Source of the DNA: an uncultured Gemmatimonadota bacterium
Lineage (GTDB): Bacteria; SM23-81; DAOVCL01
Reading direction: 5' to 3'
Length of the DNA stretch: 18,501 nt
Assembly (NCBI GenBank): GCA_964626665.1
Contig: CAZVGK010000039.1
Span: 4,818 to 23,318, forward strand
A model generated the notes under the pieces. It saw only the letters and a list, made by a program, of their open reading frames with translations. It did not search any database and was not told where the DNA came from. Made by a program: the position numbers and the translations under genes. Below, piece by piece: positions 2,397 to 18,489 of this stretch. Position 1 is the stretch's first letter. Each line of letters begins with the position of its first letter.

Positions 2397-4307
2397 TTAT
2401 TCCTTTTTTAAAAGAACCTTGCCATATTTTTCCCCCACAACTTCTTCTTTGATTGAGTATAACCGGTGGTAGTCCTCAATGGAGAGGATCGCCTCAGCAA
2501 GGTTGATCTCTAACCTATAGGAGAGGGAAGATCCGTCTCCCTCTATTTTTTGGTAGCTGATCTTTCCCAGGCCCCCAGGCAGTTCCCTCTGGAAGCTCCC
2601 CGGAGCTAAAACAACCCGATATCCCCTGGGCAGTATCACCTTAAAGTCCACGGTCGTCCTCTCCTTCTCCCCGTGAAAATAGGGGTTATACCTCTTCTTG
2701 GTGGATAGCTGGACAAAATCCCGCAAGTTCTCGGTTATGGGCTTGCTTAGGTCAAAGTAGAGGAAGTCGCCGTCAGCAATCCCGTAGTGGGGGACCTTAC
2801 AGCTAAAGGCTTCGATGAACTTGCTGGGTGACTCCTTGGTTTGGAGGCCGCTAATGGGGACTGCGCTCCGCGATATATGGTCAAGCTTCTTCTGGGCATA
2901 CTGCTGCAATTTCTGCGGCGATAGTTCCTGGTGCATCTTTTTCACCTGAGCGTAATCCATCCCATAGTGCGTATCTCTCTTTACCAGGTAGGCATCGCCA
3001 TTGGCGATTAACTGTAGCTCAGTCTGGATATTTTTCCCATTGCGCAAGCTATCGGCAATGGAGACCGGGATGGCCGAGAGGCTATCCCCATTAACCAGGT
3101 AACTGAGGTCCCCATCCAGATCTCGGTTAATCGCTAAGGGGCCATACTGGCCGTCCTTGAGCATAGGGTCGAGGTATAACTCCTGGTTGCCCAGATTCAC
3201 AGCCACCAGGGGTCGGGAGATAGCGGAGAAGGACTGTGCCTTGAGATCCTCTTGGTAAAGCTGCAACCTTCTGTTGCCTAACAAGAAACAGAAACGGGGC
3301 TTCATCCCTGCGGACTGGAGAAGCCCATAGAGAAGGATTGCCTTGTCATAGCCGTCCCCGTAACCATCCCGCAAGCTTGTGGCCGCATCGCTCAGGTAGC
3401 CTCCGATGATTGAGATCCCTCCTAAAGGGATGGAGTTCACCTGGCCAGCGACGAAGTCATAAAGCCTCTTTAGCTTCAGGTAATCATTAGAGCCATTGCC
3501 AATAATCTGCGTCTCTTTCTTCCTTAGCTCCGGAGTGACCTGGGCCCTCTCCACCATTTTGCGGTTAAGGTCGGAGAGGAACCCCTTTAGGTCCGGGATA
3601 TTGCTGTAGTAGAGGGTGGGGGCCAACTGGGTCAAGGGAGGTAGATCCCTCTCCTCGGCTATCCCCTTTTGATTCACCGCAGTCCACTCATATCTAATCC
3701 GGCTACCCTCTGTGTCCTGCGCAAAATCTACCCCAGCAGGTTGGTTGAAATGAAAGCTAACCCCCTGCGGCACTTCAATAGTTACCACCTTCTTCAGTAG
3801 CGGATCATGGAATTGAAAGCATTCTGCGCCATAGAAAGGGAAATGGGCATTACATCTTACCTCATAGTTTATCTCCACCACATCTCCCACATCCACAGAG
3901 GGGAAGGAGACTACCATAATGCCCACTGCGGGGTATCTTGGTCCCTTGGTGGTCGAGGGATCATCCATATCGTTGATCTCCTCCTTCCTCACCACCTCTA
4001 TGGAACCGTTGGCGTTTATCGTCTGGGCATTTTTTATCTTCACCCCTTTAAATTTTCGGGCATAGGTTATCCGATACTCGCCAAACTGGTTTCTCCCCTT
4101 CTGGTTAAGGATCTTCCTGATTATATGGATGGAGGATGTGTAGCTTCCATCGTCGTTGAGCACCCAATAGTGCTCCGAAAGGGCAATGACCGAGTTCGCC
4201 CGGGGGTGGGTCTCCCTACCGGGGATCTGGGAGTAGTCATAGGCGAAGAGATTTGCCCAGACAAGGCAGAAGAAGAGAACCAAGGGCACATAGAATTTCC
4301 TATTCAT
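2397..4307 (-). CDS. DUF3857 + transglutaminase-like domain protein, secreted, catalytic Cys absent
   Basis: Signal peptide; DUF3857-type N-terminus (IIRKILNQKGRNQFGE...VSFPSVDVGDVVEINY); transglutaminase-like helix reads GYGDGYDKAILLYGLL, followed by YLDP. Confidence 0.85.
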   Translation of the reverse strand: MNRKFYVPLVLFFCLVWANLFAYDYSQIPGRETHPRANSVIALSEHYWVLNDDGSYTSSIHIIRKILNQKGRNQFGEYRITYARKFKGVKIKNAQTINANGSIEVVRKEEINDMDDPSTTKGPRYPAVGIMVVSFPSVDVGDVVEINYEVRCNAHFPFYGAECFQFHDPLLKKVVTIEVPQGVSFHFNQPAGVDFAQDTEGSRIRYEWTAVNQKGIAEERDLPPLTQLAPTLYYSNIPDLKGFLSDLNRKMVERAQVTPELRKKETQIIGNGSNDYLKLKRLYDFVAGQVNSIPLGGISIIGGYLSDAATSLRDGYGDGYDKAILLYGLLQSAGMKPRFCFLLGNRRLQLYQEDLKAQSFSAISRPLVAVNLGNQELYLDPMLKDGQYGPLAINRDLDGDLSYLVNGDSLSAIPVSIADSLRNGKNIQTELQLIANGDAYLVKRDTHYGMDYAQVKKMHQELSPQKLQQYAQKKLDHISRSAVPISGLQTKESPSKFIEAFSCKVPHYGIADGDFLYFDLSKPITENLRDFVQLSTKKRYNPYFHGEKERTTVDFKVILPRGYRVVLAPGSFQRELPGGLGKISYQKIEGDGSSLSYRLEINLAEAILSIEDYHRLYSIKEEVVGEKYGKVLLKKE

Positions 4308-4317
4308 CGTTCACCTC

Positions 4318-6282
4318 TCACTTTTTAATTATGATCATCTTCTTGTCGGCGATCTCCCCTCGCTGGGTGCAATCCTTGAGCTGCAGGTACTCCTCAGGGG
4401 TAAATTCCACTTTGTTGAGGGAAAACTCCCTACTGATGAGCAGACTCCGCTGCCCATCCTTTTGGAAGCGATAGCGCAACTGGTAACCGGCCTTGTCCAC
4501 TAATGGGTTCTGCGGCAAGATGAGCTCCCCATAATCTGCGGCCAGCTTAATCCTGACCTCATCCTGCGAGGAGACAGTGAAGCGGGTTTTGAAATCGAAG
4601 TTGCGTTTCTTCAAGGCCATTTCTCCTAAGATGTATCTCATCAATCCGAAATCTGTGGAGATATAATCGATGGGGAACAGCGCATAGTTGGCATTCTCAA
4701 TTAACGGCTCCTTCAAGGTGAACTTCAGCTTCAATTGGAGGTTCTCTCCCATCTGGGTCATTAGGTTGGTGGGTAAGAGCTCAAAGGTGTCTACCTCGGC
4801 CGTGCTGTTGAACCTCTTTACCATCCTGTGGATGTAGTTTTCAATATCCTTTGGGGACTGGCGGATAAAAAAGCCCCGATAGACCTCATCCCAGATGCCG
4901 GTAAACTCGATTTTGGCCTCTCCTTTGGCCTCTCCGCCCACGATCTCCAGATTGGTCACCGTCTTCAGCAGGTTGTCCTTGGCCGGCCTTACTGGCGTTA
5001 GCTTCAGGGGTTCGCCATACTTGGAGCTCACCAGGTAGCTGCAGTCCCTCTCCCAGTCCGGCAGATACTCCTTAGCCGTTTCGCTTGTTGCGTCATAGAG
5101 GGTATAATGGCCACTGGACTCCCTGATGGCCGTAATGGCATGGTTGAAATAGGGCAAGGGGACCTCCTCATCCCTCTTTGCTCCCGCATAGATCAACACT
5201 GGATAGGCTTCCTCACCAAGCAACCGGAACATCCCAGCCAGCAGGACGGCTTTATCCCGACAGACGCCATGCCTCCTCTCAAAGGTCTCAGTTATGTTAT
5301 GGGGCTCATAGCCGGGGGCCTCCTTCTCCGTGGTTATCCCCATATACCTGACCTTTTGGGAGGCAAAACGGAAGATTCTGTCGATCCTCTCCTCTCTGGT
5401 TTGGGCATCATCAGTTAACTCCTTGACCTTCTTGATCATCCCCTCGGAGGCGCTCATATGCGGTTCTGTGAGGTTATAATACCATTTGGAGACCGCTGGC
5501 CAATCCTCAAATGTGGAGACCAAAACCCGCGTTCCCACCCTGGTTACGGTGGGCATCTTCGGCTCCTCGATAAGCTGAGGCATATCCTTGGCCACCCAGG
5601 TATAGTAGATCTTGTCGCCTTTTTTCACCATATCCTTTGAGACCCTATCAGCATCTCTCCCTTTCACTATAGTCTTCCTCAACGGGAGGTCTGCCGGGGC
5701 CACCGCCTCATATCTGTAATGGAGAATTGGCTGGAACTCCTGAAAAAGACAGAGGTCGCAGAAGTTATTGGCCAATCTGGTGTGGAAGCAAATTCGGGAA
5801 ACCCGATAATGGACGAGATCTCCCACCTCCAGGTCAGGGATATTGACTGTAACCAACCTGTTGTTTGGATTGTAGATGTTCATACTCATCTGAGAGGGAT
5901 TCACCTGATCCTTGAGGTTCTTGTCTATCTCCACCGGGACGATGCGGCCATCGGATTTAATCACCTCTATGGCCTCGATGTTTTGTTTAGTGAGTGCCCG
6001 GTCATAGTAGCCCTTGAATACCGAGCTCTCCCTTCTCCCCTTCTCCGTGAGCACCTTAACATAGTAATCGTCTTCGTTGATATAAGTTCCATCCTCGTTG
6101 TATTTTACCCGTTGATAGTCATCCACTAAAACCGTGTGGGCATTGGGATATTTGGCCCGGGAGATCGCCTGTGCCCTCTCAATTATCGCATCCCTATTGA
6201 GAAGTAGCTCATAGCCAAAACAGAGAGGGGCAAGGGAGATGGAAAAGAGGAGAAAAAATAGGGTTGCCCTCTTCAAATTCAC
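4318..6282 (-). CDS. DUF3857 + transglutaminase-like cysteine protease domain protein, secreted
   Basis: Likely GTG start at 6282 with AGGAGG RBS (ORF track extends it to 6315). Signal peptide; IPDLEVGDLVHY; triad motifs GVCRDKA (Cys), FNHAIT (His), LYDAT (Asp). Confidence 0.9.
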   Translation of the reverse strand: MNLKRATLFFLLFSISLAPLCFGYELLLNRDAIIERAQAISRAKYPNAHTVLVDDYQRVKYNEDGTYINEDDYYVKVLTEKGRRESSVFKGYYDRALTKQNIEAIEVIKSDGRIVPVEIDKNLKDQVNPSQMSMNIYNPNNRLVTVNIPDLEVGDLVHYRVSRICFHTRLANNFCDLCLFQEFQPILHYRYEAVAPADLPLRKTIVKGRDADRVSKDMVKKGDKIYYTWVAKDMPQLIEEPKMPTVTRVGTRVLVSTFEDWPAVSKWYYNLTEPHMSASEGMIKKVKELTDDAQTREERIDRIFRFASQKVRYMGITTEKEAPGYEPHNITETFERRHGVCRDKAVLLAGMFRLLGEEAYPVLIYAGAKRDEEVPLPYFNHAITAIRESSGHYTLYDATSETAKEYLPDWERDCSYLVSSKYGEPLKLTPVRPAKDNLLKTVTNLEIVGGEAKGEAKIEFTGIWDEVYRGFFIRQSPKDIENYIHRMVKRFNSTAEVDTFELLPTNLMTQMGENLQLKLKFTLKEPLIENANYALFPIDYISTDFGLMRYILGEMALKKRNFDFKTRFTVSSQDEVRIKLAADYGELILPQNPLVDKAGYQLRYRFQKDGQRSLLISREFSLNKVEFTPEEYLQLKDCTQRGEIADKKMIIIKK

Positions 6283-6364
6283 CGATTCCTCCTTTCGTAA
6301 GGTTTTTTTAAGCATCTTTTACCGAAACCCATCTACTCCTAAAAATATTTCTGTTGTTGAGCGG

Positions 6365-6493
6365 TCAGATCCCTGATCTGAGGGTGCGTGACAGAAGAGG
6401 ACTTCTGCCGCCTTCTAAGGGCCCTCGGCTAAAGCCGGGTTGGAGGTTTCGTGGTTCTTCCTTAGCTCTTTGTGGATTTTATCATCCACAAAG
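6365..6493. repeat. Intergenic palindromes (REP-like, or RNA-stabilising/terminator hairpin)
   Basis: TCAGATC-CCT-GATCTGA (6365-6381); CGGCT-AA-AGCCG (~6426-6437); 10-bp stem CTTTGTGGAT-TTTATC-ATCCACAAAG (6468-6493). Confidence 0.5.
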
Positions 6494-6539
6494 GGAGGAC
6501 CTTCCGTCAGGGCAGGAGTCCTACCAGCACATCTCAAGC

Positions 6540-8612
6540 TTACTCAACCACAAATTCGCTCGCCCATCTTTGCAGTTTGGGTCCCTGGCGCCTGGCCAAT
6601 AGCTCCTGCCACTTTTCATCCGTGAGCCTGTCCTTCATCGGCTGTTTGAACTCGTAGTAGGAGAAGGCCCCTCCCTTGGTCAGGGTAAGCTTTCCCTCCA
6701 CTGGGGCGATGAGGTAGATGATGGATGGATTCCCCACCCCCTCTTCCAATACCTGCTGGGAGTTGACATCGGTGTGCACATCGGCCACTACGGCCATCCT
6801 TTGGTCGGTGCCGGATGTTATTTTTTTCATTAACTCTGGGGAGAATCTGGTAATCCCCTCCAGCTTGGACCCTATTTCCCAGATCAGCCTGTATTCCTCA
6901 TCTCCCAAAGCCTCTCCTTGCAGCTCCTTGCGGGAGATGCTCGTCAGGGAGCTCAATAGCTCCTCGAATTGCTGGAGTTTCCCGCGCGGCCCCGTGGAGA
7001 GCAGCCCCTGGCTGTTTAGCCCCTCTCTAAGCTGGGTGATCAGAGCCTTTATCCGGTCATAGAGCTGGGGATAGGGTTCGACATATCCCTTAGTGAGCCT
7101 TGGGCGAGGTGGCAAACCAGTGGCCATCATTGTATAGCTCTGCTTAGCATAGAGAATGGTGTCATGCCTCAGTTCGGCCCAGGAACCGAGAGCGGTGTTC
7201 AGCTCCTTAAGGACCCAGGCCTTGCTCCCCATAAAGGAAGGATAGCCGTTATGCTTTCTCCCTACCAGCCATCTCAGACAGGAGAACCAGCTCCAATAGA
7301 GGTTTTCCTCCCAGGTCTTCTTATCAAGTTCGGTAAATTCTTCCCTCAGTTTCTCAAGCATCTGGTCATAGTTGCGATAATTAGTATCCCCTTCCTTTCT
7401 CAGGATCTTCAGAGCCTGCTTGCTTCCTAAAACTGCCAGCACATCCAGCCCGCGGGGGAAACATCTCTGGGGGCCCATTATTGTCTGTTCCATAGTGAAA
7501 GGATGACCATTACCGGTATACCCGATCACCTTGTTGTATACCAGGTTCTGAAGGATATAGGAGTCGGGGATGAATCTCTGTCCCATAAACCGGAAACCCT
7601 GAGTGAGCTGCGCAGCCCCTTTCCTGGCGGCCTCTACATCCTCCACAAGGGTGGAGACGATTTTGGGTTTCCTCAGCTCTTTGGCCTTTTTGATAAAACC
7701 ATCGAGCCTTGTGGTGTCAGCGAGGGCCTCAATAGAGAACTTATCACCATAGACATCTTTGATTAGCTTAGTGTAGTCATCGATATCGAGGTCGTCTGTT
7801 TTGCCTACAAAGAAAACGGTAGGACGATAGATCCTCTCCCAGCTTTTCTTTGCCGCATCGTTCTCATTGAAGAGAGTGCAGATGAGGATCGCCTGCCTGG
7901 TGAGAGACCTCCCCTTCTTCTTTACATCCACTTTCCCGGCAAACATCCCTTCCCCTGGTTCAAGCCAGAAGCAGACTCTCCCATACCACATCATCGCCCG
8001 GAAGTAATGTTCAAACACCTCTGAACGGGTGTAATGGCCGCGGGGGAGATATTGGCTGTAGTCCTCAAGGTAGCCGAAGATGGGAGAAGGAGCAAACCCC
8101 CTATGCTGGGAGATTAGCACCAGCTCTTTCTCCACCTGGGGGAGGATGGCTGGAGGAATCTCCGCCTCCAACCCCAAGAGCCTGGCAGCTACCCCAAAGA
8201 AGCCCACATTTGCTAGGGCGGCCTCCCTCACCTTTCCCCCCCTGGCCTGCTCATACTGGTTCAGAGAGCCCCTGAACATAGCCTCGGTCAGCCCCTGGAG
8301 CTCATCGTTGAGCTTCTCTACCTCCACGGCCCTCAGCATATAGTCAAAGAGGATGTGGGAAGTATGTAGCAGGAGATCTGAGGTAACCAATATTGGCTCC
8401 CCTCTTTGTTTAGCATCCTTATAGATTTGAAAGATCTCCTCTTTTTCACTGTGAACGACGGTGAACCCCTCCTCGGTTAGCTTCGCTTTGGCCGCGGCGG
8501 AGAGCCGGAAGGAATCGATGTTACTCACCTTACCCAGATCCCAGCTCCCAGAATTGGCCAGAGAGAGGGTGGGGATAAGCAAAAATGAAAATAGAAGAAC
8601 TAACTCCCTCAT
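6540..8612 (-). CDS. DUF3160 domain secreted protein
   Basis: Signal peptide; EDYSQYLPRGHYTRSE..YFRAMMWYGR, FRFMGQRFIPDS, ELNTALGSWAELRHDTILYAKQSY, GYVEPYP, VVADVHT, GGAFSYYEF..RLTDEKW are DUF3160 motifs. Confidence 0.92.
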   Translation of the reverse strand: MRELVLLFSFLLIPTLSLANSGSWDLGKVSNIDSFRLSAAAKAKLTEEGFTVVHSEKEEIFQIYKDAKQRGEPILVTSDLLLHTSHILFDYMLRAVEVEKLNDELQGLTEAMFRGSLNQYEQARGGKVREAALANVGFFGVAARLLGLEAEIPPAILPQVEKELVLISQHRGFAPSPIFGYLEDYSQYLPRGHYTRSEVFEHYFRAMMWYGRVCFWLEPGEGMFAGKVDVKKKGRSLTRQAILICTLFNENDAAKKSWERIYRPTVFFVGKTDDLDIDDYTKLIKDVYGDKFSIEALADTTRLDGFIKKAKELRKPKIVSTLVEDVEAARKGAAQLTQGFRFMGQRFIPDSYILQNLVYNKVIGYTGNGHPFTMEQTIMGPQRCFPRGLDVLAVLGSKQALKILRKEGDTNYRNYDQMLEKLREEFTELDKKTWEENLYWSWFSCLRWLVGRKHNGYPSFMGSKAWVLKELNTALGSWAELRHDTILYAKQSYTMMATGLPPRPRLTKGYVEPYPQLYDRIKALITQLREGLNSQGLLSTGPRGKLQQFEELLSSLTSISRKELQGEALGDEEYRLIWEIGSKLEGITRFSPELMKKITSGTDQRMAVVADVHTDVNSQQVLEEGVGNPSIIYLIAPVEGKLTLTKGGAFSYYEFKQPMKDRLTDEKWQELLARRQGPKLQRWASEFVVE

Positions 8613-8993: not shown

Positions 8994-9022
8994 TTGACTT
9001 TGGGAGTTGAGATTGTTATATT
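8994..9022 (+). promoter_or_regulatory. Sigma70-type promoter (extended -10) for the small-protein/activator operon
   Basis: TTGACT (8994-8999), 17-nt spacer ending TGT, TATATT (9017-9022). Confidence 0.65.
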
Positions 9023-9082
9023 TTGTTATAATTTGAAAAGGCCATTTTAGGGGAGAGGCATCCCCCCTCCGTGAGGTGATGA

Positions 9083-9418
9083 ATGATGAAAAAGTTGGGT
9101 ATTATCTTATTGACCATAGTCTTCCTTCTTTCCATAGTTAGCCTTCTGCCGGTGAAGAAGGTATCTGCCAGCGAAGGGCCAGAGGAATGTCTGCTTATGG
9201 CCGCCTGGCCGTGGGACGAGTATTATCATGGTAATAAAGGAGGTTCCTCTAACAATTCAGGAGATTCTTATGTTCCCACTCAGAATCGGGAGGTTATTCA
9301 AAGGAGTTCCACTATATCTGATCAATCAGGAGAGGTGAAGAAGATCAGGAACTATCCTTGGTATAAAAACTGGATTTGGAAGGTTGGCTTTTATCTACGG
9401 GTTTTCATCAATAAGTGA
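9083..9418 (+). CDS. Small secreted protein, candidate signalling pro-peptide
   Basis: GAGGTG RBS; signal peptide MMKKLGIILLTIVFLLSIVSLLPVKKVSA; core AWPWDEYYH; Ser/Gly/Asn-rich linker; aromatic amphipathic C-terminus YPWYKNWIWKVGFYLRVF. Ends 20 nt before the activator gene. Confidence 0.8.
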   Translation: MMKKLGIILLTIVFLLSIVSLLPVKKVSASEGPEECLLMAAWPWDEYYHGNKGGSSNNSGDSYVPTQNREVIQRSSTISDQSGEVKKIRNYPWYKNWIWKVGFYLRVFINK

Positions 9419-9438
9419 TTCTTTGAGGAGACAAAGCC

Positions 9439-12267
9439 GTGGGTAGCAAAATGCCGAAATTAGACGCTTTAATCAAGGAGATTGAGGTTCTCCTTTACAA
9501 AGAGAAGGGGCTGGACAGGGCGGAGGCAAAGGTTGATGAGGCTACAGAAAAGATAATCACTTCACAATTGCAAGACTCTCCTCAAGCAGCACAGGTATAT
9601 ACTCTGGCAACGGAAGTCAAGATAGAGATTGGTAAATATGTGGAGGCAGAGCCTTATGCATTTAAGGCATTTGAGATTCTGAAGGACTCCGCCGAGAACA
9701 GGCTAAAGGGGAGAGTTCAATGGTGTATAGGAAGGATTTACAAAAACCTGGGTGATATGGATAAAGCCCGTATATACTTAGAGGATTCTCGAAGCACATA
9801 TCGCACCATTGGATACAGGCAGGGTGAATTGGAGGCATTGAATGGTTTAATTCACCTTGATTTTATTGGATCCGAATGGTCATCTGCCAAGAAGAGATTG
9901 AAATATGCTTACCAAATAAATCAGGAGTCAGGCGATCGGCGAGGGATGGCCCTTTGCCTCACAAACCTGGCGACCGTATCTATACTTCTCGGGGAGCATA
10001 GTGCTGCTGAGAAGACCCTCTTGGAGAGCATCAAAATCAAGGAGAAGTTAGGGGATCCGCTTCTTTTGACCCACAGTTGGCTCTCGCTTGCTCGCTTATA
10101 TCTGAGGGAGCGGAGATGGTCGGAGGCCTCTCGGCTCATCCAGAAGGCGAAGAAGGTAAGTGAGGAACATACCCTTTCACGCGAGTTGGCGATGAGCCTG
10201 GAGAGTGAAGGGGAGTTATACTTTGAGCGGAAAGAATATGTCAAGGCCGAGAAGAGTTATCTGGATGGTTTGAGGGTAGGGGAGCGGATATCTCCTGAAG
10301 GGGATGTCGTCGCAGAGCTGTGTCGCAAGCTTGCTGATTTGTATTCAGCTACAAAGGAGCCTGATAAGGCGATTGAATACGGCCATAGGGCTCTGGAGGT
10401 CTCAACCAAGCTTGGAGACAGATTCGAACAGGGGTGCTGTCATCGGGCGTTGGCTGTGGCTTATGGTTTAAAAGGTCTAAAGGATAAAGCCCAAGAGAAG
10501 TTTGCTAAATCTGTCTCCATTTTCAAGTCAATTGGGGAGCGGTTTGAATTGGCTTATAGTCTTCTGACAAATGGAGAGTTGAGCGGGAGGGTTGGTCTGC
10601 TTAGGGAGGCTTATGCCCTTTTTTCTCAGATTGAAGGCGCTGTTTTTTATAAGGCGCTTGCCGAACTCCAGTTGGCTAAGGTTGACCCTTCTCTTAAGGC
10701 TGAAATCCAATATCTACGAGAGGCTGAGGATATATTTCGAGCTAAGGGGGAAGCCGAGAAGCTCAAGGAGGTTGAGGTCATAAAGGCTGAGCTTAATAGG
10801 AGGCTAACTCAGCCTACAACCAAGAAGTATGAGGTCTTAAAAGGCCTGGCCTCACCGGAATTGGGGGAGGTATTTGAGGGGGTGGTGAGGGAGCTTAAGG
10901 CAACCAGGGGATTTGTTGCTTATCGGAGGGATGCCAGCAATGGGGAAATGAAAGTAGAGAGGAGCCACAATCTCACTGAGGAAGAGGCGAGGAAACTTCT
11001 CTCCCTGTTGACCGATAACAACGGTTTTCAGCCAGGGGAGCCTTTCATCCTCTATGACACCGAGTTGGACAATCGTTTTTCCTCTTTGGGAGCAGGTAGC
11101 GTAATGATCACCCCTTTTTCCAGTAAGACCGAAGGGAGAATAGACGGTTTCCTGTATGTGGATCGGCAAAAGCAAAAGCAAAAGGATGGGGAACCGTTCT
11201 TAGACAAGGAATATGACCTCTTCTACTATCTCTCAGAGAGGGTGGGCAAGGCGATTTCGGAAAAGAGACAGGGGGAGTTGGAAGAGGAGTTGAGTGAGTT
11301 AAAGAGGAGTATGAAGGGATCAGGGGTGCTCACCCATAATCCTCAGATGTTGAAGATATTGAAACTGATAGAGTTAGCCCAAGGTTGTGATGCGCCCACC
11401 CTCTTGACTGGGGAGACAGGCACCGGAAAGGACTTCATCGCCCGGATTATCCATCAGGGGAGTGCCAGGAAGGATGCGGGCTTTGTGGAGATACACTGCG
11501 GGGCAATTCCCAAAGACCTGGTGGAGTCAGAACTATTTGGTTATGAAAAAGGTGCCTTTACCGGGGCTGTCTCTCGCAAGCTGGGACGGCTTGAGCTTGC
11601 AGAGGGAGGAACCCTCTTCCTCAATGAGCTAGGAGAACTGTCAGAATCTACCCAGGTGAAGCTGTTGAGATTTTTGGACACCACCGAGTTGGAGAGGGTA
11701 GGGGGTAACAGAACCATAAGGGTAAACACGAGGGTAATAGCGGCTACCAACAAGGATTTAAAGGTAGAGGTGGAAAATGGGACATTTCGGAAGGACCTCT
11801 ACTACAGGTTGAATGTGCTATGTGTGGAATTACCTCCATTAAGGGAACGGAAAGAGGATATACCCCCTTTGGCCCATCATTTTATAAAACTTTATGGAGA
11901 CAAATATGGGAAGAAGGTCCAAGGGATGGCTCCCGGAGTCCTCCAGGCAATGATGGAGTATGACTGGCCGGGGAACATAAGGGAGTTGGAGAATATGATT
12001 GGGACGATGGTAATAGCAACCAGGGAGGGGGAAGAGATTAGCGTAGGGCTATTGCCAAAGCAGGTTAAAAAAATGCTTCAGCCGGAAGAGGGAGATGCTC
12101 CTACGCTGCCCAGCAAACTCGCCTCTGTTGAAAAAGAAGCCATTTGGGATGCCTTAGAGCGGACTAATGGAATAAAGACAAAGGCAGCCCAAATCTTAGG
12201 AATACATGAGGCTACGCTACGGGGCAAGATAAAGAAATACAAGTTAGAGAAAGTAATGGACAATTAG
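9439..12267 (+). CDS. Sigma54-dependent enhancer-binding protein: TPR array, GAF-like domain, AAA+ domain, Fis-type HTH
   Basis: GAGGAG RBS and GTG start; ~450 aa of TPR-like helical repeats (e.g. IGRIYKNLGDMDKARIYLEDS); GAF-like segment (GSVMITPF...IDGFLYVD); Walker A GETGTGKD, ESELFGYEKGAFTGA, FRKDLYYRLN, WPGNIRELEN; HTH ALERTNGIKTKAAQILGIHEATLRGKIKKY. No receiver domain. Confidence 0.95.
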   Translation: MGSKMPKLDALIKEIEVLLYKEKGLDRAEAKVDEATEKIITSQLQDSPQAAQVYTLATEVKIEIGKYVEAEPYAFKAFEILKDSAENRLKGRVQWCIGRIYKNLGDMDKARIYLEDSRSTYRTIGYRQGELEALNGLIHLDFIGSEWSSAKKRLKYAYQINQESGDRRGMALCLTNLATVSILLGEHSAAEKTLLESIKIKEKLGDPLLLTHSWLSLARLYLRERRWSEASRLIQKAKKVSEEHTLSRELAMSLESEGELYFERKEYVKAEKSYLDGLRVGERISPEGDVVAELCRKLADLYSATKEPDKAIEYGHRALEVSTKLGDRFEQGCCHRALAVAYGLKGLKDKAQEKFAKSVSIFKSIGERFELAYSLLTNGELSGRVGLLREAYALFSQIEGAVFYKALAELQLAKVDPSLKAEIQYLREAEDIFRAKGEAEKLKEVEVIKAELNRRLTQPTTKKYEVLKGLASPELGEVFEGVVRELKATRGFVAYRRDASNGEMKVERSHNLTEEEARKLLSLLTDNNGFQPGEPFILYDTELDNRFSSLGAGSVMITPFSSKTEGRIDGFLYVDRQKQKQKDGEPFLDKEYDLFYYLSERVGKAISEKRQGELEEELSELKRSMKGSGVLTHNPQMLKILKLIELAQGCDAPTLLTGETGTGKDFIARIIHQGSARKDAGFVEIHCGAIPKDLVESELFGYEKGAFTGAVSRKLGRLELAEGGTLFLNELGELSESTQVKLLRFLDTTELERVGGNRTIRVNTRVIAATNKDLKVEVENGTFRKDLYYRLNVLCVELPPLRERKEDIPPLAHHFIKLYGDKYGKKVQGMAPGVLQAMMEYDWPGNIRELENMIGTMVIATREGEEISVGLLPKQVKKMLQPEEGDAPTLPSKLASVEKEAIWDALERTNGIKTKAAQILGIHEATLRGKIKKYKLEKVMDN

Positions 12268-12306
12268 AAGTAAAATCTACTACGCTGAACAGCAATTCAG
12301 ACACTG

Positions 12307-12336
12307 ACCACTTGAGAAAGCTCAAGTGGTTTTTTT
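12307..12336 (+). terminator. Intrinsic terminator of the activator operon
   Basis: ACCACTTGAG-AAAG-CTCAAGTGGT followed by a T tract. Confidence 0.9.
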
Positions 12337-12370
12337 ATTCCCCAGGGTTGAGTTATTGGGTTCAACATCT

Positions 12371-12474
12371 TCGTATTTTTCCACGGATTTGTCGTTTATA
12401 TCCACGGCTATCTAAGTTTCAGGGGAAAAAGCAATTACAGTAAATTTAGATTTTTGTGTCGTGATAATCTACGA
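12371..12474. promoter_or_regulatory. Three putative upstream activator sequences (TCGT-N8-ACG)
   Basis: TCGTatttttccACGG (12371-12386), TCGTttatatccACGG (12392-12407, 21 bp later) and TCGTgataatctACGA (12459-12474), about 120-220 bp upstream of the predicted sigma54 start site. Confidence 0.65.
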
Positions 12475-12566
12475 ATTCTGCTAAACTCCAAAAATGGAGA
12501 CATTTGCTAGCAGATATAACTCCAATAAAAATAACCACTTAAAATTTTCGGTTTTGATAACATAAC

Positions 12567-12582
12567 TGGCACAGAATTTGCT
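12567..12582 (+). promoter_or_regulatory. Sigma54 (-24/-12) promoter
   Basis: TGGCAC-AGAAT-TTGCT matches TGGCAC-N5-TTGCW exactly; it follows a sigma54 activator gene and an AT-rich spacer. Predicted start site about 12593. Confidence 0.88.
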
Positions 12583-12592
12583 AAGGTTATAA

Positions 12593-12880
12593 GTATAGAT
12601 GTCTCCGCGTCCGTGGCTTGAAAGGCAGTCAAGAAAGAAGCCGGTGCTGCTTTGTTTGAGGACTCTGGAATTCTACGAATCACAGAGTCCTCCATCAAGG
12701 GGTTTGGGGGAAAGGATGTGCTTTCCCCCAAGGAGTAACAGGATTACGGTGTGAGCTGGCAGAGCACCGTAATCCGCCATAGGGGCGATAGCCCCTTGGA
12801 AGTTTGTGAACGAAGTGAACAAACTTTGCTTGGTGGTTGGAGGCAGCATTTGGGGGAACAAAATTAGCGGAGATGCCCCG
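12593..12880 (+). ncRNA. Candidate sigma54-dependent structured non-coding RNA (~280 nt, family not recognised)
   Basis: Nested stems 12600-12608/12867-12875, 12643-12652/12841-12850 and 12692-12699/12829-12836, plus local hairpins 12658-12692, 12704-12731, 12741-12775, 12781-12796 and 12800-12826. No RBS-led ORF. Confidence 0.55.
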
Positions 12881-12917
12881 CAGGCTCTCCCTTGCCTGCC
12901 ACCCCTGCCAAGAAGGA

Positions 12918-12951
12918 ACACGAATCACACGAATAGACGAATTTGCACGAA
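12918..12951. repeat. Degenerate short tandem repeat with ACGAA core, 4 copies
   Basis: ACACGAAT-C-ACACGAAT-A-GACGAAT-TT-GCACGAA. Confidence 0.6.
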
Positions 12952-12970
12952 GAGATAGAAAGATCACATC

Positions 12971-13033
12971 GAGGTGGCACAACCCCGATTTTGCCACCTA
13001 CCTTTGCCGTAAGAATCGGGGTTCTGATGGCTC
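12971..13033. repeat. REP doublet (REPIN-like), copy 1
   Basis: GAGGTGGCACAACCCCGATTTTGCCACCT followed by the inverted partner GCCGTAAGAATCGGGGTTCTGATGGCTC. Confidence 0.7.
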
Positions 13034-13381
13034 GGTGGGGGTACTGTCAGCTAAGGGCACCTACCAGCTCAGACTAAATTTCTATTTTCTTAGGGTTCCT
13101 GCCCTACCAGCAGGGGAAAGTTTCATTTTTAATTCTCAATTTTTAATTGCTTTTTTCAGTGAGGTTCCGTGGTGAATTGTCACCAGGAGGCAAGCGAAGG
13201 CAGGGTAGAGGTGACCCGATAGTCTCCTTATGGTGCCAGAGGGGGAGGACTATTGATAAGGAGGGGTGCCCTCGGATGAGCTTGGTCACGCAGAATTCCG
13301 GTTTGCCACTCGCATTGTCTCAACAACCTGGCGGGTCTCATCAGGGGTCTGGGGCCCGCCAGGACTCCTATCACCTTTAAC

Positions 13382-13442
13382 GAGGTGGCAGAACCCCGAT
13401 TCTGCCACCAGGATTGCGTCAGAACAGGGGTTCTGACGCCTC
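13382..13442. repeat. REP doublet (REPIN-like), copy 2
   Basis: GAGGTGGCAGAACCCCGATTCTGCCACC followed by GCGTCAGAACAGGGGTTCTGACGCCTC; clearly homologous to 12971-13033. Confidence 0.75.
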
Positions 13443-13479
13443 TGATCGAGACCTTCCACCATAGGAGAAGCGTCAGGTT

Positions 13480-13647
13480 ATGGAATCCGACTATAAAAAA
13501 CCGAAGCCAAAAATGAGCCTGGAGCTTGACCAGGGAAAACCTCAAGAGAAGAAGAGCCTCTGGCAGAAGATTAAAGAATTCTTCGCTCAGGAACCCGAAG
13601 AACAAGGTGCAGAATACTGGAGGAACAGAGACCCAAGTGACTGGTAA
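13480..13647 (+). CDS. Small hypothetical protein, 55 aa (not in the ORF track)
   Basis: MESDYKKPKPKMSLELDQGKPQEKKSLWQKIKEFFAQEPEEQGAEYWRNRDPSDW*; AGGAG at 13463-13467; purine-rich coding-like composition; amphipathic SLWQKIKEFF segment. Confidence 0.6.
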   Translation: MESDYKKPKPKMSLELDQGKPQEKKSLWQKIKEFFAQEPEEQGAEYWRNRDPSDW

Positions 13648-13667
13648 GGGAATCTGCTATAAATTCC

Positions 13668-13696
13668 TTGACTTGGGAGGTTGAGAGGGGTATAAA
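13668..13696 (+). promoter_or_regulatory. Sigma70-type promoter upstream of the secreted-protein cluster
   Basis: TTGACT (13668-13673), 17-nt spacer, TATAAA (13691-13696). Confidence 0.6.
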
Positions 13697-13841
13697 TTTG
13701 TGAGGCACATTTTACCAAGGGGGTGCAATGAAGGAACAGATAAGATTTTTGGCGTTAGTGCTCGTATGGGGGCATAGGAGAACAAAGCCACATATACCAG
13801 TTTTGCCCCAGGAGAAATTTAGTTAAAACAAGGAGGGAGAA

Positions 13842-15992
13842 ATGCGTAAGATCAGTATAGGATTTGTATTCTTGGCAATTATCCTGGCCGCTATTCCCCT
13901 ATATGCCTCAGGTGCGGGGGACTACAAGCTTGGGTTGACCTCGGTAAATCATGGAGAGGCTGAGCTTATTGATGATACTGGTTTGAGGCATCACATAGTC
14001 TCAACTAATGGTCTGGTCATTGATACTATGACCTGGTGTAATGGTATCCCTTTTGCTGATTTGAGCCAATACCTGTGCCCTTATGACAGCATGGTGAATT
14101 GGTTCAGGCCTCTTGCCCCTTGTTCCCTGTATGAAGTTGGCGGTATGTTTGCCAGCTCAGGGACTGCAAAGCTCTTTGTCTGTAGGTATGGGTACTTCTC
14201 CAGTGATTTCTCCTTCCCCTGGCCAGTAACCGATAATGAGTTGCCTGGCCCAGCCGAGTGGGATATCTCTGGAACTGGTGGCTGGGAGGAGAAGGACTTC
14301 AGGGAATATCCTTCGGATCAAGGATTCATCTTACAATTCCCAGGGGACAGCCTCTTCGCGGTAGGCTTTGGGTCCGACAGTGAGGCAAAGCCTCATATTT
14401 TTTATGACGATTATAGCCTGCATCCTGCGATCTATCCTGACGAAAATGGTGTATTCCATTGTACCCAACATTGGCGAATCACGTGGTGTCATGATGGCCA
14501 TTGGCAGTGGAATTTGAGACATCCATGTGAGCCCCCACCCCCTTGTATTTGGTGTCCTGAGCTCAATATGAGGGCGGTTGTCAACTATTATCAGGGTGTT
14601 CCCCCCTTCTTACAGGTTCTGTGGCAGAGGAATAATACCTGGTTGAGGGAGAATATCAAGATAACTGCCTTGCTGTTCGATTTTGATGGCTGGATTGCTG
14701 AGGCTACCCTTCATTATACGGTCAATGGTTCAGGGGACACATCTGAGGTCCCTATGAGCATAGAGGCGGAAGAAGGAAACAGATTTCTTGCTGCCGGTTA
14801 TCTTCCAGGTCAATTTTCCTCGGGTGATACTATAACCTACTGGTGTACCTGTGTGGACAACGATGGCAAGCCCAACAAATGGGTGGGAGATGCGGTTAAA
14901 TCCTTTGTCATTAAGAAGCCGCAGAACCCTGGGGCACAGATACTACTCGTAGGGGACGGGAATGTTAGCAAGCAGAGGGCCAGATACTATGAGAATCTGT
15001 TGGACAGGTTGGGCTACTCCTATGAACCCACCTGGTTTGCTGAGGAGAATTATGGGATAGACAGCTCAGTTGTTCTCCATACCTATGAGGGAATGGGATG
15101 GGATGCTATAATCTGGTTTGGATGGGGGTGTGGGAGCCTCCCTCGGCCGGATGGTTTGGAGGCTGACCATCCACTTATCAGGTATCTGGATAGTGGAGGG
15201 AGGCTTTTTCTTGCTGATCAGGACTATTTCTGGAAGAAGGGTATAGAAACTGGGGTTGAGATCAGCTTTGAGCCTGGAGACTTTGCCTATGACTATCTAG
15301 GGGTTCAATCCTGTATCAGCGATCCCAATATGCAGGATACCATCAGCCTTGGGGATACGATATTCTATGGGGTAGATGCTGATGACCCCATATCTGGGAA
15401 TTTCTATGAGACCGCTGTAGAGTTACATCCGAGATGTGTTGGGGTTGCCAATTGGGCTGACTATACTGAGGCTACAGCCCAGGGTGTGAACATCTTCAAG
15501 GGAGGAAAAAGCGAAGAATACAGTGGTACTAGGTTAGAGGGTGCCGAAGGGTTCAGGACTGTTTTTCTGCCCTGGTGTTTTGAGGCAATTGTCGACTGTG
15601 CGGATACCAACATCCTCACCCTCCAGGCGGATACGCTAATGTTGAATATTCTGAATGATTGGTTTGAGCTGGAAGGTATGCAGAGAATTGAGGCGGGGGT
15701 TGTGCCTCGTTCTTTTTCCTTATCTCAAAACCATCCCAATCCGTTCAATTCTAATACAGCTATCAGCTATCAGTTGTCAGCGATCAGGCCGCACCGCACC
15801 ACCCTAAAAATCTACAATATATTAGGAGAGGAGGTGATAACCTTAGTTGACCAGGAGCAAAGGGTGGGGAGGTATGAGGTGGTCTGGGATGGAAGAAACA
15901 ACCAGGGAAAGGAGGTGACCAGTGGCGTATATCTTTACCGGCTAAAGGCCGGCGAATTTACCGCAGCAAGGAAGATGGTTTTGTTAAGGTAG
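13842..15992 (+). CDS. Secreted multidomain protein with FlgD-Ig/T9SS-type C-terminal domain
   Basis: AGGAGG RBS; signal peptide; Cys/Trp-rich N-terminal domain; Ig-like segment; alpha/beta domain (ILLVGDG...DAIIWFG...LIRYLDSGGRLFLADQD); C-terminal FSLSQNHPNPFN...KIYNILGEEVITLVD...VWDGRNNQGKEVTSGVYLYRLKAGEFTAARKMVLLR. Confidence 0.9.
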   Translation: MRKISIGFVFLAIILAAIPLYASGAGDYKLGLTSVNHGEAELIDDTGLRHHIVSTNGLVIDTMTWCNGIPFADLSQYLCPYDSMVNWFRPLAPCSLYEVGGMFASSGTAKLFVCRYGYFSSDFSFPWPVTDNELPGPAEWDISGTGGWEEKDFREYPSDQGFILQFPGDSLFAVGFGSDSEAKPHIFYDDYSLHPAIYPDENGVFHCTQHWRITWCHDGHWQWNLRHPCEPPPPCIWCPELNMRAVVNYYQGVPPFLQVLWQRNNTWLRENIKITALLFDFDGWIAEATLHYTVNGSGDTSEVPMSIEAEEGNRFLAAGYLPGQFSSGDTITYWCTCVDNDGKPNKWVGDAVKSFVIKKPQNPGAQILLVGDGNVSKQRARYYENLLDRLGYSYEPTWFAEENYGIDSSVVLHTYEGMGWDAIIWFGWGCGSLPRPDGLEADHPLIRYLDSGGRLFLADQDYFWKKGIETGVEISFEPGDFAYDYLGVQSCISDPNMQDTISLGDTIFYGVDADDPISGNFYETAVELHPRCVGVANWADYTEATAQGVNIFKGGKSEEYSGTRLEGAEGFRTVFLPWCFEAIVDCADTNILTLQADTLMLNILNDWFELEGMQRIEAGVVPRSFSLSQNHPNPFNSNTAISYQLSAIRPHRTTLKIYNILGEEVITLVDQEQRVGRYEVVWDGRNNQGKEVTSGVYLYRLKAGEFTAARKMVLLR

Positions 15993-18425
15993 CTTAAATT
16001 TAAGAGAGGAGGAAGGAACGATGACAGACAAGGATTGGTTGATGAATGTGGAGAATGAGACAAGGGGAGGTAAAAATGGTTATTAGAAAGCTTTTGAGGG
16101 AAATTGTTCTTGTGGTCTGTTTCTTTATCTTAATTTCCCCCCAAATTCTCTTCGCCTGGACAACGCCGGTGAATATCTCCAATACCTCAGGACACTCAAG
16201 GTACGCTTCATTAGCGGTGGATAGGAATGGTCATATTCATGTGGTTTGGGAGGATGATACCTCAGGGAACAACGAGATTCTCTATTGCTTTTGTGATGGA
16301 GAGTCCTGGCATCCTTCCATCGATATCTCAAATGATGCCACCGACTCGGAAAGGTCGGACATAACGGTGGATGCCTTCGGACAACTCCATGTGGCCTGGA
16401 TAGATCACCAGTCCGGGGAGATATACTGGACTTTTTACGCTGAAACCTCCTGGACCTCTCCGGTGAATATCTCCAATAATCCAGGTTACTCCACCTGCCC
16501 CAGTTTAGCGGCCGATGATTCAGGCAGAGTCTATATCGCTTGGCACGACATTGGGGGGGAGCAATCCGATATCTACTTCAGCATTTATGATGGAACCTCC
16601 TGGTCACCTCCCCAGAATGTCACCAATGATGCGGTGAGCTCAGCCTATCCCGATATAGCCGTTGACTCTAAGGGATGTGTGCATTTGGTGTGGATGAACT
16701 ATGGTGCAGATATAGAGGCATATTACTCGAAATATGATGGGCACTCCTGGTCAAGTTGGGTTAATGTCTCTAATCTTGAAGGATACTCCTGCGATCCAAA
16801 GATAGCCCTGGATTCTCAGGATCATCCTCATGTCGCCTGGGAGGAACGTGAGCACGGTTACGAGGTTTATTACACCCATTTCGATGGAGAGGATTGGACT
16901 GTTCCCTATAAGCTTTCCGGCAGTGACTGTCATAATCCCGCTATTACGCTTGATTCTAAAGACAAAAGCCATGTAGTATGGGGTGGGCCAGGGAATGGAA
17001 TTTACTATACCTTTGGAAATGATACTTCTTGGTTTTCTCCCATTGATATTACAGATTCTTCTGAGGTAATTTGTTTATTGGCTGACATAGGGGTAGATTC
17101 AACCCATCTTCATGTGGTGTGGACCAAAGCCATTGATCGGACCCGTGCTGAGATTTACTACAGCAGCCATAAGTTAAGTGGAATAGAGCCAGAGCGGTGG
17201 AGGCCATTTCCAAGTGGGTATAAGCTGGAACAGTGTTATCCTAATCCGTTTAACCCGACCACTACCATCCGCTACCACCTCCCAGCGGTCAGCAGTTAGC
17301 TTAAAGATCTACAATATCTTAGGAGAGGAGGTGATAACCTTAGTGGACCAGGAGCAAAGGGCGGGGACGTATCAAGTTGTCTGGGATGGAAGAAACAATC
17401 AAGGAAAGGAGGTGACCAGTGGAGTATATCTTTACCGGCTAAAGGCCGGCGAATTTACCGCAGCAAGGAAGATGGTCTTGTTAAGGTAGCTTAAATTTAG
17501 AGAGGAGAAGAGAACGATGACAGACAGGGATTGGTTGATGAATGTGGAGAATGAGACAAGGGGAGGTAAAGATGAATATTAGAAGAAAGCTTTTGAGGGA
17601 AATTGTTCTTGTAGTCTGTTCCCTTATCTTAGTCCCCGTAAATCCCCTCCTCGCCTGGACAACGCCGGTGAATATCTCCAACACCTCAGGACACTCAAAC
17701 TATGCTTCCTTAGCGGTGGACAAATATGGTCACATTCATGTGGTTTGGGAGGATGACACCTCAGGGAACAACGAGGTTTTGTATTGTTTCTACAACGGAG
17801 ATCATTGGTCTGCTCCTCTTAATATCTCCAACGATCCAACGGACTCGGAAGCATCGGACATAACGGTAGATGCCCTGGGACAACTCCATGTGGCCTGGAT
17901 AGATTACCAGTCTGGGGAGATATACTGGACTATTTACAATGGAACCTCCTGGTCTCCTCCCCAGAACATCTCCAACAATCCCGGGCATTCTACCTGTCCC
18001 AGCTTAGCGGCTTATGATTCAGGCAGGGTCTTCATAAGCTGGCATGACATCAGAGGGCAATCTGACATCTACTTCAGCAGCTACGATGGGACCTCCTGGT
18101 CATCCCCGCAGAATGTCACCAATGATCCGCAGGACTCAGCCTATCCCAATATAGCCGTTGACTCCAAGGGGTGTGTGCATTTGGTATGGATGAACTATGG
18201 TTTGGACATAGAGGCATATTACTCAAAATACGACGCGAACTCCTGGTCAAGCTGGGTTAATATCTCCAATCTTGTGGGATACTCTTGTGATCCAAAGATA
18301 GCCCTGGATTCCCTGGATCATCCTCATGTGGTCTGGGAGGAGAGACAGTGGGGAGACCAGGAGGGGTATCACGTTTACTATGCCCATTTCGATGGGGAGA
18401 ATTGGGCTACCTCCTACAAGCTTTC
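15805..18425 (+). repeat. Tandem duplication with ~1497-bp period (C-terminal domain DNA + spacer + beta-propeller N-terminal region)
   Basis: ~15805-16915 aligns with ~17302-18425; stop codons end at 15992 and 17489, and spacers and start regions are near-identical. Confidence 0.9.
16076..17489 (+). pseudogene. Secreted BNR/sialidase-like beta-propeller repeat protein whose C-terminal domain is split by a frameshift at ~17285-17300
   Basis: Likely ATG at 16076 after GGAGG; six WxxPxNIS...P.(I/L)AxD..G..H(V/L)xW repeats; PNPFNPTTTIRYHLPAVSS* stops at 17299, and the rest of the domain (SLKIYNILGEEV...RKMVLLR) continues in another frame to 17489. Confidence 0.82.
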
Positions 18426-18489
18426 AACTGGAAGTAAAAATTTTAACCCTTGTATATTAAAGCCTAGAGCCCGAAACTGCAGAAGGTAG
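17572..18489 (+). CDS. Paralogous secreted beta-propeller repeat protein, apparently truncated, no C-terminal domain
   Basis: ATG at 17572 after GGAGG; highly similar to the 16076 gene up to YKLS...NP, then an unrelated tail LKPRARNCRR* 12 nt before the window end. Confidence 0.75.
   Translation: MNIRRKLLREIVLVVCSLILVPVNPLLAWTTPVNISNTSGHSNYASLAVDKYGHIHVVWEDDTSGNNEVLYCFYNGDHWSAPLNISNDPTDSEASDITVDALGQLHVAWIDYQSGEIYWTIYNGTSWSPPQNISNNPGHSTCPSLAAYDSGRVFISWHDIRGQSDIYFSSYDGTSWSSPQNVTNDPQDSAYPNIAVDSKGCVHLVWMNYGLDIEAYYSKYDANSWSSWVNISNLVGYSCDPKIALDSLDHPHVVWEERQWGDQEGYHVYYAHFDGENWATSYKLSTGSKNFNPCILKPRARNCRR

Follow-up and report, generated by a model that had tools for sequence, protein, structure and literature searches.

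Organization of the sigma54 cassette

The subject of this study is a sigma54 regulatory cassette in an 18,501-nucleotide (nt) stretch of DNA from an uncultured Gemmatimonadota bacterium (contig CAZVGK010000039.1; the whole stretch is referred to below as the window, and positions are counted from its first letter). At its center is the gene of a sigma54 activator, with the gene of a small exported protein directly upstream and with a terminator, three dyad sites, a -24/-12 promoter and the gene of a conserved 55-amino acid (aa) protein downstream. All of these features, and all others of the cassette given below, are on the plus strand. A first-pass annotation had described a compact same-strand module here and had interpreted it as a peptide-sensing circuit with an RNA output. 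We find that the module is real and conserved. Its layout recurs in five cassettes of the source genome. On balance we favor the view that the window contains one copy of a lineage-wide, multi-copy sigma54 cassette in which the activator, with the small exported protein as its input or partner, drives a private promoter followed by a leader and the gene of the 55-aa protein.

The small protein gene and the activator gene would be transcribed together from a sigma70-type promoter-like site at 8994–9022 (TTGACT-17-TATATT with a TG extension), which scores 10/12 in a promoter scan. A sigma70 promoter had been claimed before, and the site found lies slightly outside the interval that had been assigned to the module. 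Promoter-like matches are not enriched in this region (7 as against 5.5 in shuffled sequences); this particular site, spacer included, is found again ahead of the small open reading frames (ORFs) of several paralogous cassettes. Comparison of cassettes by eye further identified a hairpin in the 5' untranslated region that is followed by a GTGAGGTGA Shine-Dalgarno element (9050–9079). The GTGAGGTGA ribosome-binding element precedes almost all small ORFs examined, and the hairpin located 5' of it changes in sequence among cassettes with its pairing kept. We also observed that an AT-rich, TTCATTCTTAATTCT-like repeat (~45 copies, one of them at 13110–13180 of the window) is located directly 5' of the small ORF in cassettes that have no TTGACT-type promoter. 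This repeat may act as a promoter of another type or be a mobile unit that carries a promoter.

The first gene of the operon (9083–9418), defined by ORF listing, a hidden Markov model (HMM) and alignment, encodes a protein of 111 aa. Its N-terminus is signal-peptide-like by inspection and by a crude detector, in agreement with the earlier reading, and contains a basic start, a hydrophobic core and A-x-A-type cleavage sites that predict export. An acidic A-x-P-W motif, a low-complexity middle and a hydrophobic/basic C-terminal helix complete the plan of the protein. The A-x-P-W motif is its best-conserved part and is common to all paralogs, with A41, P43 and W44 invariant over 25 small-protein sequences. 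The family proper amounts to only 51 clusters among 5.8 billion proteins, without a domain or an informative name. Searches of Pfam and NCBIfam with the 111-aa and the 55-aa proteins returned no match, and a search of the ESM Atlas with both gave no usable lead.

The second gene (9439–12267) encodes a 942-aa sigma54 enhancer-binding protein for which Pfam matches, a structural model and motifs together give the architecture TPR-GAF-AAA+-HTH_8. Pfam reports many TPR matches at approximately residues 97–363 (generic TPR families and TPR_MalT), Sigma54_activat (PF00158) at residues 632–796 (E 1.6e-63) followed by AAA_lid_14, and a Fis-type HTH_8 domain at the C-terminus (residues 894–934, E 4.4e-12). 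The same search found no receiver domain in the 942-aa protein, and a Walker A motif (GETGTGK) and a GAFTGA loop can be read in its translation. An AlphaFold2 model of residues 1–624, based on an alignment of 15 relatives, reached a predicted local distance difference test (pLDDT) score of 87. It shows ~22 TPR-type helices forming a superhelix over residues 6–456, an alpha/beta domain at 470–585 and a long linker helix, with no membrane segment, which places the sensor in the cytoplasm. Thus, the protein is the receiver-less activator with a long TPR array that had been proposed. At the sequence level a GAF domain is weakly supported, by Pfam (GAF_3, E 0.2) and by a profile search of PDB sequences that recovered GAF domains at E 5e-4 to 0.05, including that of the sigma54 activator Nlh2. 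However, when residues 458–624 were modeled separately (pLDDT 82), nearly all Foldseek matches listed were GAF domains (DosS/DosT, PtsP and phytochromes; template modeling scores 0.46–0.65). The alpha/beta domain is therefore GAF-like and the label of TPR-GAF activator is correct, even though Pfam alone does not call the domain. In NCBIfam neither the activator nor its distant relatives reach an equivalog cut-off. The same genome encodes rpoN (C12:37065–37535).

The operon ends at a strong intrinsic terminator (12306–12331 in the scan, delimited here as 12306–12338; 11 pairs and a T-run) that had been annotated before and that is kept in an ortholog, locus L047 of genome G002. Three dyads of the form TCGT-N7-YACGR follow at 12371–12386, 12392–12407 and 12459–12474, 93–196 nt upstream of the sigma54 promoter, again as previously noted. 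The pattern search found no further occurrence in the window, a uniqueness that is circular since the pattern was derived from these same three sites. The activator of the ortholog is 67% identical to that of the window in the aligned N-terminal region. Behind it, two of the dyads are exact and the third is a variant, all at unchanged distances from the promoter (-177, -108) within surrounding sequence that differs. Other paralogs contain different dyads at the equivalent place, such as GTCCA-N4-TGGAC in C2, L048 and L059. Conservation in the ortholog together with divergence between paralogs fits an activator-specific private enhancer, and we infer from this that the three dyads are probably the activator's own, putative enhancer sites.

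The sigma54 promoter itself, detected by motif search at 12567–12581, matches the consensus TGGCAC-N5-TTGC as had been stated. This sequence occurs at 12 sites in the genome with ~5.8 expected, and five of the 12 are directly behind activator genes. In the same genome we also noted three ordinary activators of ~460 aa without TPRs (C5:39472, C6:63882 and C29:30785) that have the consensus sequence directly behind them. In this genome, activator genes seem usually to have a promoter of their own located behind them.

The layout is kept in diverged cassettes of near relatives, and its gene pair in distant ones

The source genome (3.17 Mb, 99.65% complete) encodes five full-length activator paralogs that are 34–38% identical to one another. 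All five share the same layout, with a 102–118-aa signal-peptide ORF containing A-x-P-W, the activator gene, and a -24/-12 site located 172–300 nt after the activator stop codon. Two congeneric genomes contain at least 4 (G001) and about 13 (G002) such cassettes, and further loci came from a single scan each of genome contigs and of metagenome contigs. The first-pass annotation had proposed that homologs be checked for a small ORF upstream and a sigma54 promoter downstream. We did so in a near set of 32 loci (5 from the source genome, 13 from G002, 4 from G001, 1 from G025 and 9 from other contigs), leaving out three loci that are identical to the source genome. Upstream DNA is available for 31 loci, and in 30 of them the small-protein HMM matches the directly upstream ORF; the sole miss, G025, contains an analogous 124-aa signal-peptide ORF with EHPWD. 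Downstream DNA extends for at least 400 nt in 25 loci, and 21 of these have a -24/-12 match of at least 9/10 within 600 nt of the stop codon, as compared with 64 of 5000 random 600-nt genome windows. Among the four promoter misses are two loci with TGGCAC/T-N5-TTGT, one with a broken activator gene and one that scores 8/10. Because these loci are paralogs and kin, such counts overstate their independence; the gene pairs have diverged to 24–45% identity and the layout is nonetheless kept.

A profile of the TPR-GAF region run against 401 genomes identified full-length relatives (ORFs of ~1000–1070 aa) in other lineages. At all 17 distant loci examined, a small signal-peptide ORF is seen by eye upstream of the activator gene on the same strand. 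A crude and strict detector recovers such an ORF at 15 of these 17 loci and at 24 of 31 near-set loci. As a background, it reports one ahead of 18 out of the 1123 ORFs in the source genome that are 300 aa or longer. The distant small proteins contain a signal peptide, an acidic Pro-containing motif (A-x-P-W-D, EHPWD or GDPDxP) and a low-complexity stretch, and most of them end in a Trp-containing hydrophobic/basic C-terminal helix. Where at least 490 nt of downstream DNA is available, a -24/-12 match of at least 9/10 follows the activator gene at 6 of 10 distant loci. Four of the distant activators were found in a look-up and two of them carry names, one being a "sigma 54-interacting transcriptional regulator" from a Gemmatimonadota metagenome-assembled genome (MAG) and the other a hypothetical protein from a Candidatus Eisenbacteria MAG. 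Since the upstream pair is kept at distant loci where the downstream genes differ, it appears that the input pair is conserved and the output varies. The cassette is thus repeated in Zixibacteria and related phyla. The pairing of small protein and activator, present in MAGs named Candidatus Zixiibacteriota, Gemmatimonadota and Candidatus Eisenbacteria and amplified to many diverged copies per genome, offers a testable handle on regulation in phyla that have been little studied experimentally.

Two side observations concern individual cassettes. At L121 and L124 (G085 and G247) the sigma54 promoter is located 44–118 nt before the gene of a sigma70-family sigma factor (regions 1.2, 2, 3 and 4), a layout that would give a cascade from sigma54 to a sigma70-family factor; the activator of the L099/L124 locus (G247) is the one named from the Gemmatimonadota MAG. 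Secondly, L047 and L048 (G002:C108 and C109) encode identical 113-aa small proteins next to activators of 932 and 960 aa, whose N-terminal regions are 67% and 58% identical to that of the window, and in L059 an activator like that of the window is joined to an intergenic region like that of C2. The identical small proteins and the mixed composition of L059 suggest recombination between cassettes.

A 55-aa gene and its probable, repeat-expanded leader lie behind the sigma54 promoter

In the window the sigma54 promoter is followed at 13480–13647 by a gene for a highly charged 55-aa protein ending in DPSDW, which is recognized as a gene by its copies, its position and its codon bias. Four further copies are present in the source genome, each behind an activator gene, and the ORF is found in 14 of the 32 near-set loci, some of which are cut by contig ends. 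Where the promoter is mapped (13 loci), the ORF begins 301–913 nt after it, and its ribosome-binding site is mostly of the GGAGG type. Among 14 aligned copies, differences number 1300, 926 and 2022 at codon positions 1, 2 and 3, respectively, a pattern that is expected of coding sequence. The protein has no signal peptide and is the likely protein product of the sigma54 transcript. Given a conserved gene at this distance from the promoter in 13 loci, the conserved RNA ahead of it is most likely, and most simply, the 5' leader of the 55-aa gene, which in this copy has been expanded by repeats.

A DNA search of the genome shows that 12560–13700 is a mosaic. The 5' half of the leader-RNA core, identified by alignment, folding and a covariance model, occupies 12589–12655 and its 3' half occupies 12825–12908. 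Between them, in the terminal loop of the core's central hairpin, is inserted a dispersed mid-copy repeat of ~165 nt that contains four hairpins (approximate boundaries ~12656–12824) and has 3–6 further copies in the genome. Repetitive extragenic palindromic (REP)-like high-copy repeats, apparent from the genome search and from depth spikes, follow at 12910–13060 (~30–84 copies) and 13110–13180 (~45 copies), and another REP-like palindromic repeat with up to ~133 genome copies is located at 13370–13445. These repeats resemble REP elements and miniature inverted-repeat transposable elements in being short, intergenic palindromic units with tens to more than 100 copies per genome, but in this case they lie within a conserved leader of the putative sigma54 transcript and in part break it up. 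At 13175–13372 there is a second conserved block, likewise non-coding, for which a structure is predicted (6 loci aligned, alifold energy -62.8).

Some further details of this region were recorded. The second block (~190 nt) is predicted to form multiple hairpins with at least one compensatory stem change, is present twice in L054 and has no match in Rfam. A GGTGGCA...TGCCACC unit with a downstream partner arm (12968–13040 and 13380–13445), REP-like with ~80–130 genome copies, causes contig breaks and depth spikes in other metagenome assemblies. We considered ORFs of 77–112 aa inside 12837–13380 as genes and rejected them, given their overlap with dispersed repeats and the lack of any conserved protein among them. 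All or part of the stretch is contained in 23 DNA sequencing runs, of which 22 are labeled salt marsh and one, with a small share, hydrothermal vent. Contigs from two other salt-marsh runs cover both insertion junctions without differences; contigs from four DNA runs break at the repeats, and none joins cleanly across the ~165-nt insertion.

The core (~150 nt) is located directly after the promoter and has one other copy in the source genome, uninterrupted, behind the C2 paralog. Thirteen copies of the core align well. RNAalifold predicts a long-range helix between 12624–12633 and 12891–12900 that encloses the central hairpin (12645–12650 with 12843–12848), single-sequence folds agree with this, and 96.5% of cells in the core alignment pair as compared with 40–59% in slid controls. 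A covariance model finds the core only at cassettes of G000, G001 and G002, with 13 hits that comprise 11 training sequences, one further cassette and one hit at a contig start; a search of G025 with the model returned no copy. The first-pass annotation had described the transcript as a highly paired, ORF-less RNA. The pairing stands in so far as 12589–12908 folds strongly (z-score -5.8), but the insertion-free C2 copy has a z-score of only -2.0, so that the strong value of the window owes much to the hairpins of the inserted repeat, and the transcript is not ORF-less, as the coding 55-aa ORF follows.

Behind the 55-aa gene, a sigma70-like element (TTGACT-17-TATAAA) is seen by eye at 13668–13696; the promoter scan did not list it. 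This element and that at 8994, which are alike in their spacers, are the only two matches in the genome, and related sigma70-like elements are found right after the small-ORF stop in other cassettes. The next gene (13842–15992) encodes a 716-aa secreted protein in which domain searches found a type IX secretion system (T9SS)-type C-terminal sorting domain. A secreted protein is encoded behind the 55-aa ORF at other loci as well, from families other than the 716-aa one, and the 716-aa protein is a possible further target of the activator.

Signs of decay were seen in some cassettes. Two activator genes have internal stop codons (L060, which is G001:C161, and L054, which is G002:C98), one of the core helices of L060 is missing its 5' strand, and a frameshift disrupts the 55-aa ORF of L051.

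Proposed mode of action and its alternatives

Taken together, these data are consistent with the following model. A sigma70-type promoter would drive a two-gene operon, closed by the terminator, that encodes the small Sec-type exported protein and the activator. The activator would bind its own dyads and switch on its private sigma54 promoter. The resulting transcript would begin with the folded ~150-nt core, here enlarged to ~900 nt by the repeat insertion, the REP-like elements and the second block; it would then encode the 55-aa charged protein and might read on into the secreted-protein gene. The small exported protein would be the cognate input or partner of the TPR-GAF sensor, by some route from outside to the cytoplasm. 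As the operon, private enhancer, promoter, leader and small protein form a compact and self-contained unit, reconstitution in a heterologous host appears feasible.

Several observations weigh against this model. The near-set loci on which it is built are paralogs and kin and not independent samples. With export predicted for the small protein and a sensor that is cytoplasmic, direct contact between the two would need an extra step. In the window the 55-aa ORF has a weaker ribosome-binding site than in the other copies, and ~900 nt with many strong hairpins lie between it and the promoter; termination inside this stretch is conceivable, though a scan of 12332–14000 listed no plus-strand terminator. 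Covariation in the core is weak: the copies are very similar, only three pairs change on both sides, and of 500 shuffles 13 attain the percentage paired that was observed and 26 the covariation score. The few two-sided changes and these shuffles make the RNA structure of the core plausible rather than proven, and its conserved sequence could reflect something else. Finally, the search of sequencing runs listed no RNA run that contains the region, and the start, extent and processing of the transcript are accordingly deduced from DNA.

The usual means of switching a sigma54 activator is phosphorylation, a small ligand or an anti-activator. The activator described here resembles the GAF-sensor enhancer-binding proteins of the NifA, FhlA and NorR type and Aquifex Nlh2 in its AAA+ domain with GAFTGA, its C-terminal Fis-type HTH, a GAF domain directly before the AAA+ domain, the lack of a receiver domain and a target promoter that adjoins the activator gene. 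It differs from them in the ~450-residue TPR superhelix ahead of the GAF domain, in the strictly paired gene of a small exported protein and in the number of cassettes, which is 5 to ~13 per genome. With a TPR-GAF sensor in strict pairing with a small exported protein, this well-studied class of activators would gain a new input logic. In the portions of the literature returned by a full-text search we found no description of a TPR-type or peptide-sensing sigma54 activator, or of one paired with a small exported protein, which is in line with the earlier statement that no described system with this layout was known to its author. The "TPR" of one paper (PMC5552954) denotes, in the part returned, a resistance marker. 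As far as searched, the cassette is a real and undescribed variant of sigma54 control.

It is less probable, but possible, that the small protein is no signal at all but a co-expressed envelope component or product, with the TPR domain binding a cytoplasmic protein and the GAF domain sensing a small molecule. The TPR partner could then be the 55-aa DPSDW protein, giving feedback, or the unexported pre-protein, giving a readout of secretion. This explanation would account for an exported small protein next to a cytoplasmic sensor and agrees with the presence of a genuine GAF fold. The 55-aa protein lacks a signal peptide, and its acidic Pro/Trp end loosely resembles A-x-P-W by eye. The explanation is also compatible with outputs that differ by lineage, including sigma70-family sigma factor genes in two distant loci, with the input pair staying the same. 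On the other hand, the small ORF accompanies the activator much more strictly than the 55-aa ORF does (14/32 loci). Our preferred model remains the small protein as input or partner.

A different question is whether the ~150-nt core acts by itself in trans, like Qrr under LuxO, as a small RNA set free through processing or termination, with the 55-aa gene forming a separate downstream unit. We consider this rather unlikely. Sigma54-dependent small RNAs encoded next to or under the control of their activator are well known (LuxO-Qrr, CbrB-CrcZ and GlrR-GlmY), and the cassette shares with them a sigma54 promoter followed by a conserved structured non-coding stretch in several homologous copies per genome. 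In addition, several paralogous activators per genome drive near-identical cores, whose sequence is more conserved than the proteins of the same cassettes (the activator N-termini are 42–45% identical where the cores are nearly identical), and insertions in the cores occur only in loops or between helices. In the paralog class of C41, L055 and L061 the RNA is shorter, has the same central hairpin motif and is not followed by a 55-aa ORF; a GC-rich hairpin with a U-run lies ~115 nt from the promoter, which likens these copies further to the known small RNAs and makes the class the best candidate for a true small RNA. However, the terminator scan did not list this C41 hairpin, nor, in the window, any terminator after class-1 cores. 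Unlike the known small RNAs, the RNA of the window and of most copies has no terminator and is followed by the conserved 55-aa gene. In compact copies this ORF is only ~300–390 nt from the promoter, with no sigma70-type promoter noted between them. A search of Rfam with 12270–13840 at E values up to 1 gave no match, and elsewhere in the window only sub-threshold models of microRNAs, long non-coding RNAs and a hepatitis C virus element appeared. For the window, then, the proposed RNA output is most simply the 5' leader of the 55-aa gene, with much of its pairing brought in by inserted repeats.

The cassette also invites comparison with peptide quorum sensing. RRNPP receptors (Rap, NprR, PlcR, PrgX, Rgg and AimR) combine a TPR sensor with a DNA-binding output and have a small signal-peptide gene adjoining them, as is the case here; their pro-peptides are much shorter than ~105–120 aa. 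Attractive as peptide sensing is as a hypothesis, we regard it as unlikely that bacteria of the Fibrobacteres-Chlorobi-Bacteroidetes (FCB) group (Zixibacteria, Gemmatimonadota and Eisenbacteria) use a sigma54-coupled counterpart of such signaling. If they did, the exported small protein of each cassette, or a fragment of it, would be read by the cognate TPR-GAF activator, giving up to ~13 orthogonal channels per genome with private enhancers. These channels would converge on near-identical leader RNAs and the 55-aa protein; in other phyla, alternative sigma factors would take their place.

The full circuit of the first-pass annotation, in which a secreted pro-peptide is processed, re-imported and bound by the TPR domain as in RRNPP systems and the activator drives a trans-acting RNA, is in our view quite improbable. 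It is supported by the strict pairing of small ORF and activator, which extends to MAGs named in two other phyla, along with the 5 to ~13 diverged pairs per genome that each have their own dyads and would suit orthogonal signaling channels. The TPR model is a long superhelix, and among the Foldseek matches listed for the whole sensor model the best are TPRs of the LGN/Pins type, whose structures were determined with partner proteins, together with other long arrays (OGT, APC/C, Tom70 and designed TPRs). C41-type paralogs have the short RNA with hairpin and U-run and lack the 55-aa ORF. Against this, no RRNPP structure is among the Foldseek matches listed for the TPR model, and the architecture is not RRNPP-like: the output consists of a sigma54 activator with an AAA+ domain and a Fis-type HTH_8 at its C-terminus, the small gene is upstream in the same operon with a product of ~105–120 aa, and the hosts are FCB-group MAGs rather than Firmicutes, with T9SS-type sorting domains indicating that the host is probably diderm. 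No homolog of an OppA/DppA-type binding protein (SBP_bac_5), of PTR2 or of SbmA was found in the 99.65% complete genome; one OPT-family oligopeptide transporter is encoded, which may offer another route of re-import. That the best-conserved motif, A-x-P-W, is common to all paralogs and not paralog-specific is not what a channel-specific signal predicts, although the variable middle and C-terminus could carry specificity. In the window, moreover, no terminator is listed for the transcript, which would continue into the conserved 55-aa coding ORF. Least probable by far is that the region behind the promoter is functionless, repeat-laden intergenic DNA with a chance or decaying promoter site; large parts of 12656–13445 are dispersed repeats and covariation is weak, but the positions of promoter, core and 55-aa ORF are kept across diverged paralogs and genomes and the dyads are kept in the ortholog.

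Other features of the window

The flanks of the cassette encode two DUF3857/transglutaminase-like proteins, one DUF3160 protein and two BNR_4 paralogs (2397–8612 on the minus strand and 16046–18489 on the plus strand). A long hairpin at 2259–2367, located between the ORFs at 1772–2191 and 2397–4307, probably represents a terminator or one more palindromic repeat; its matches to microRNA precursors are sub-threshold, the best of them (E 0.0028) being far short of the gathering cut-off.

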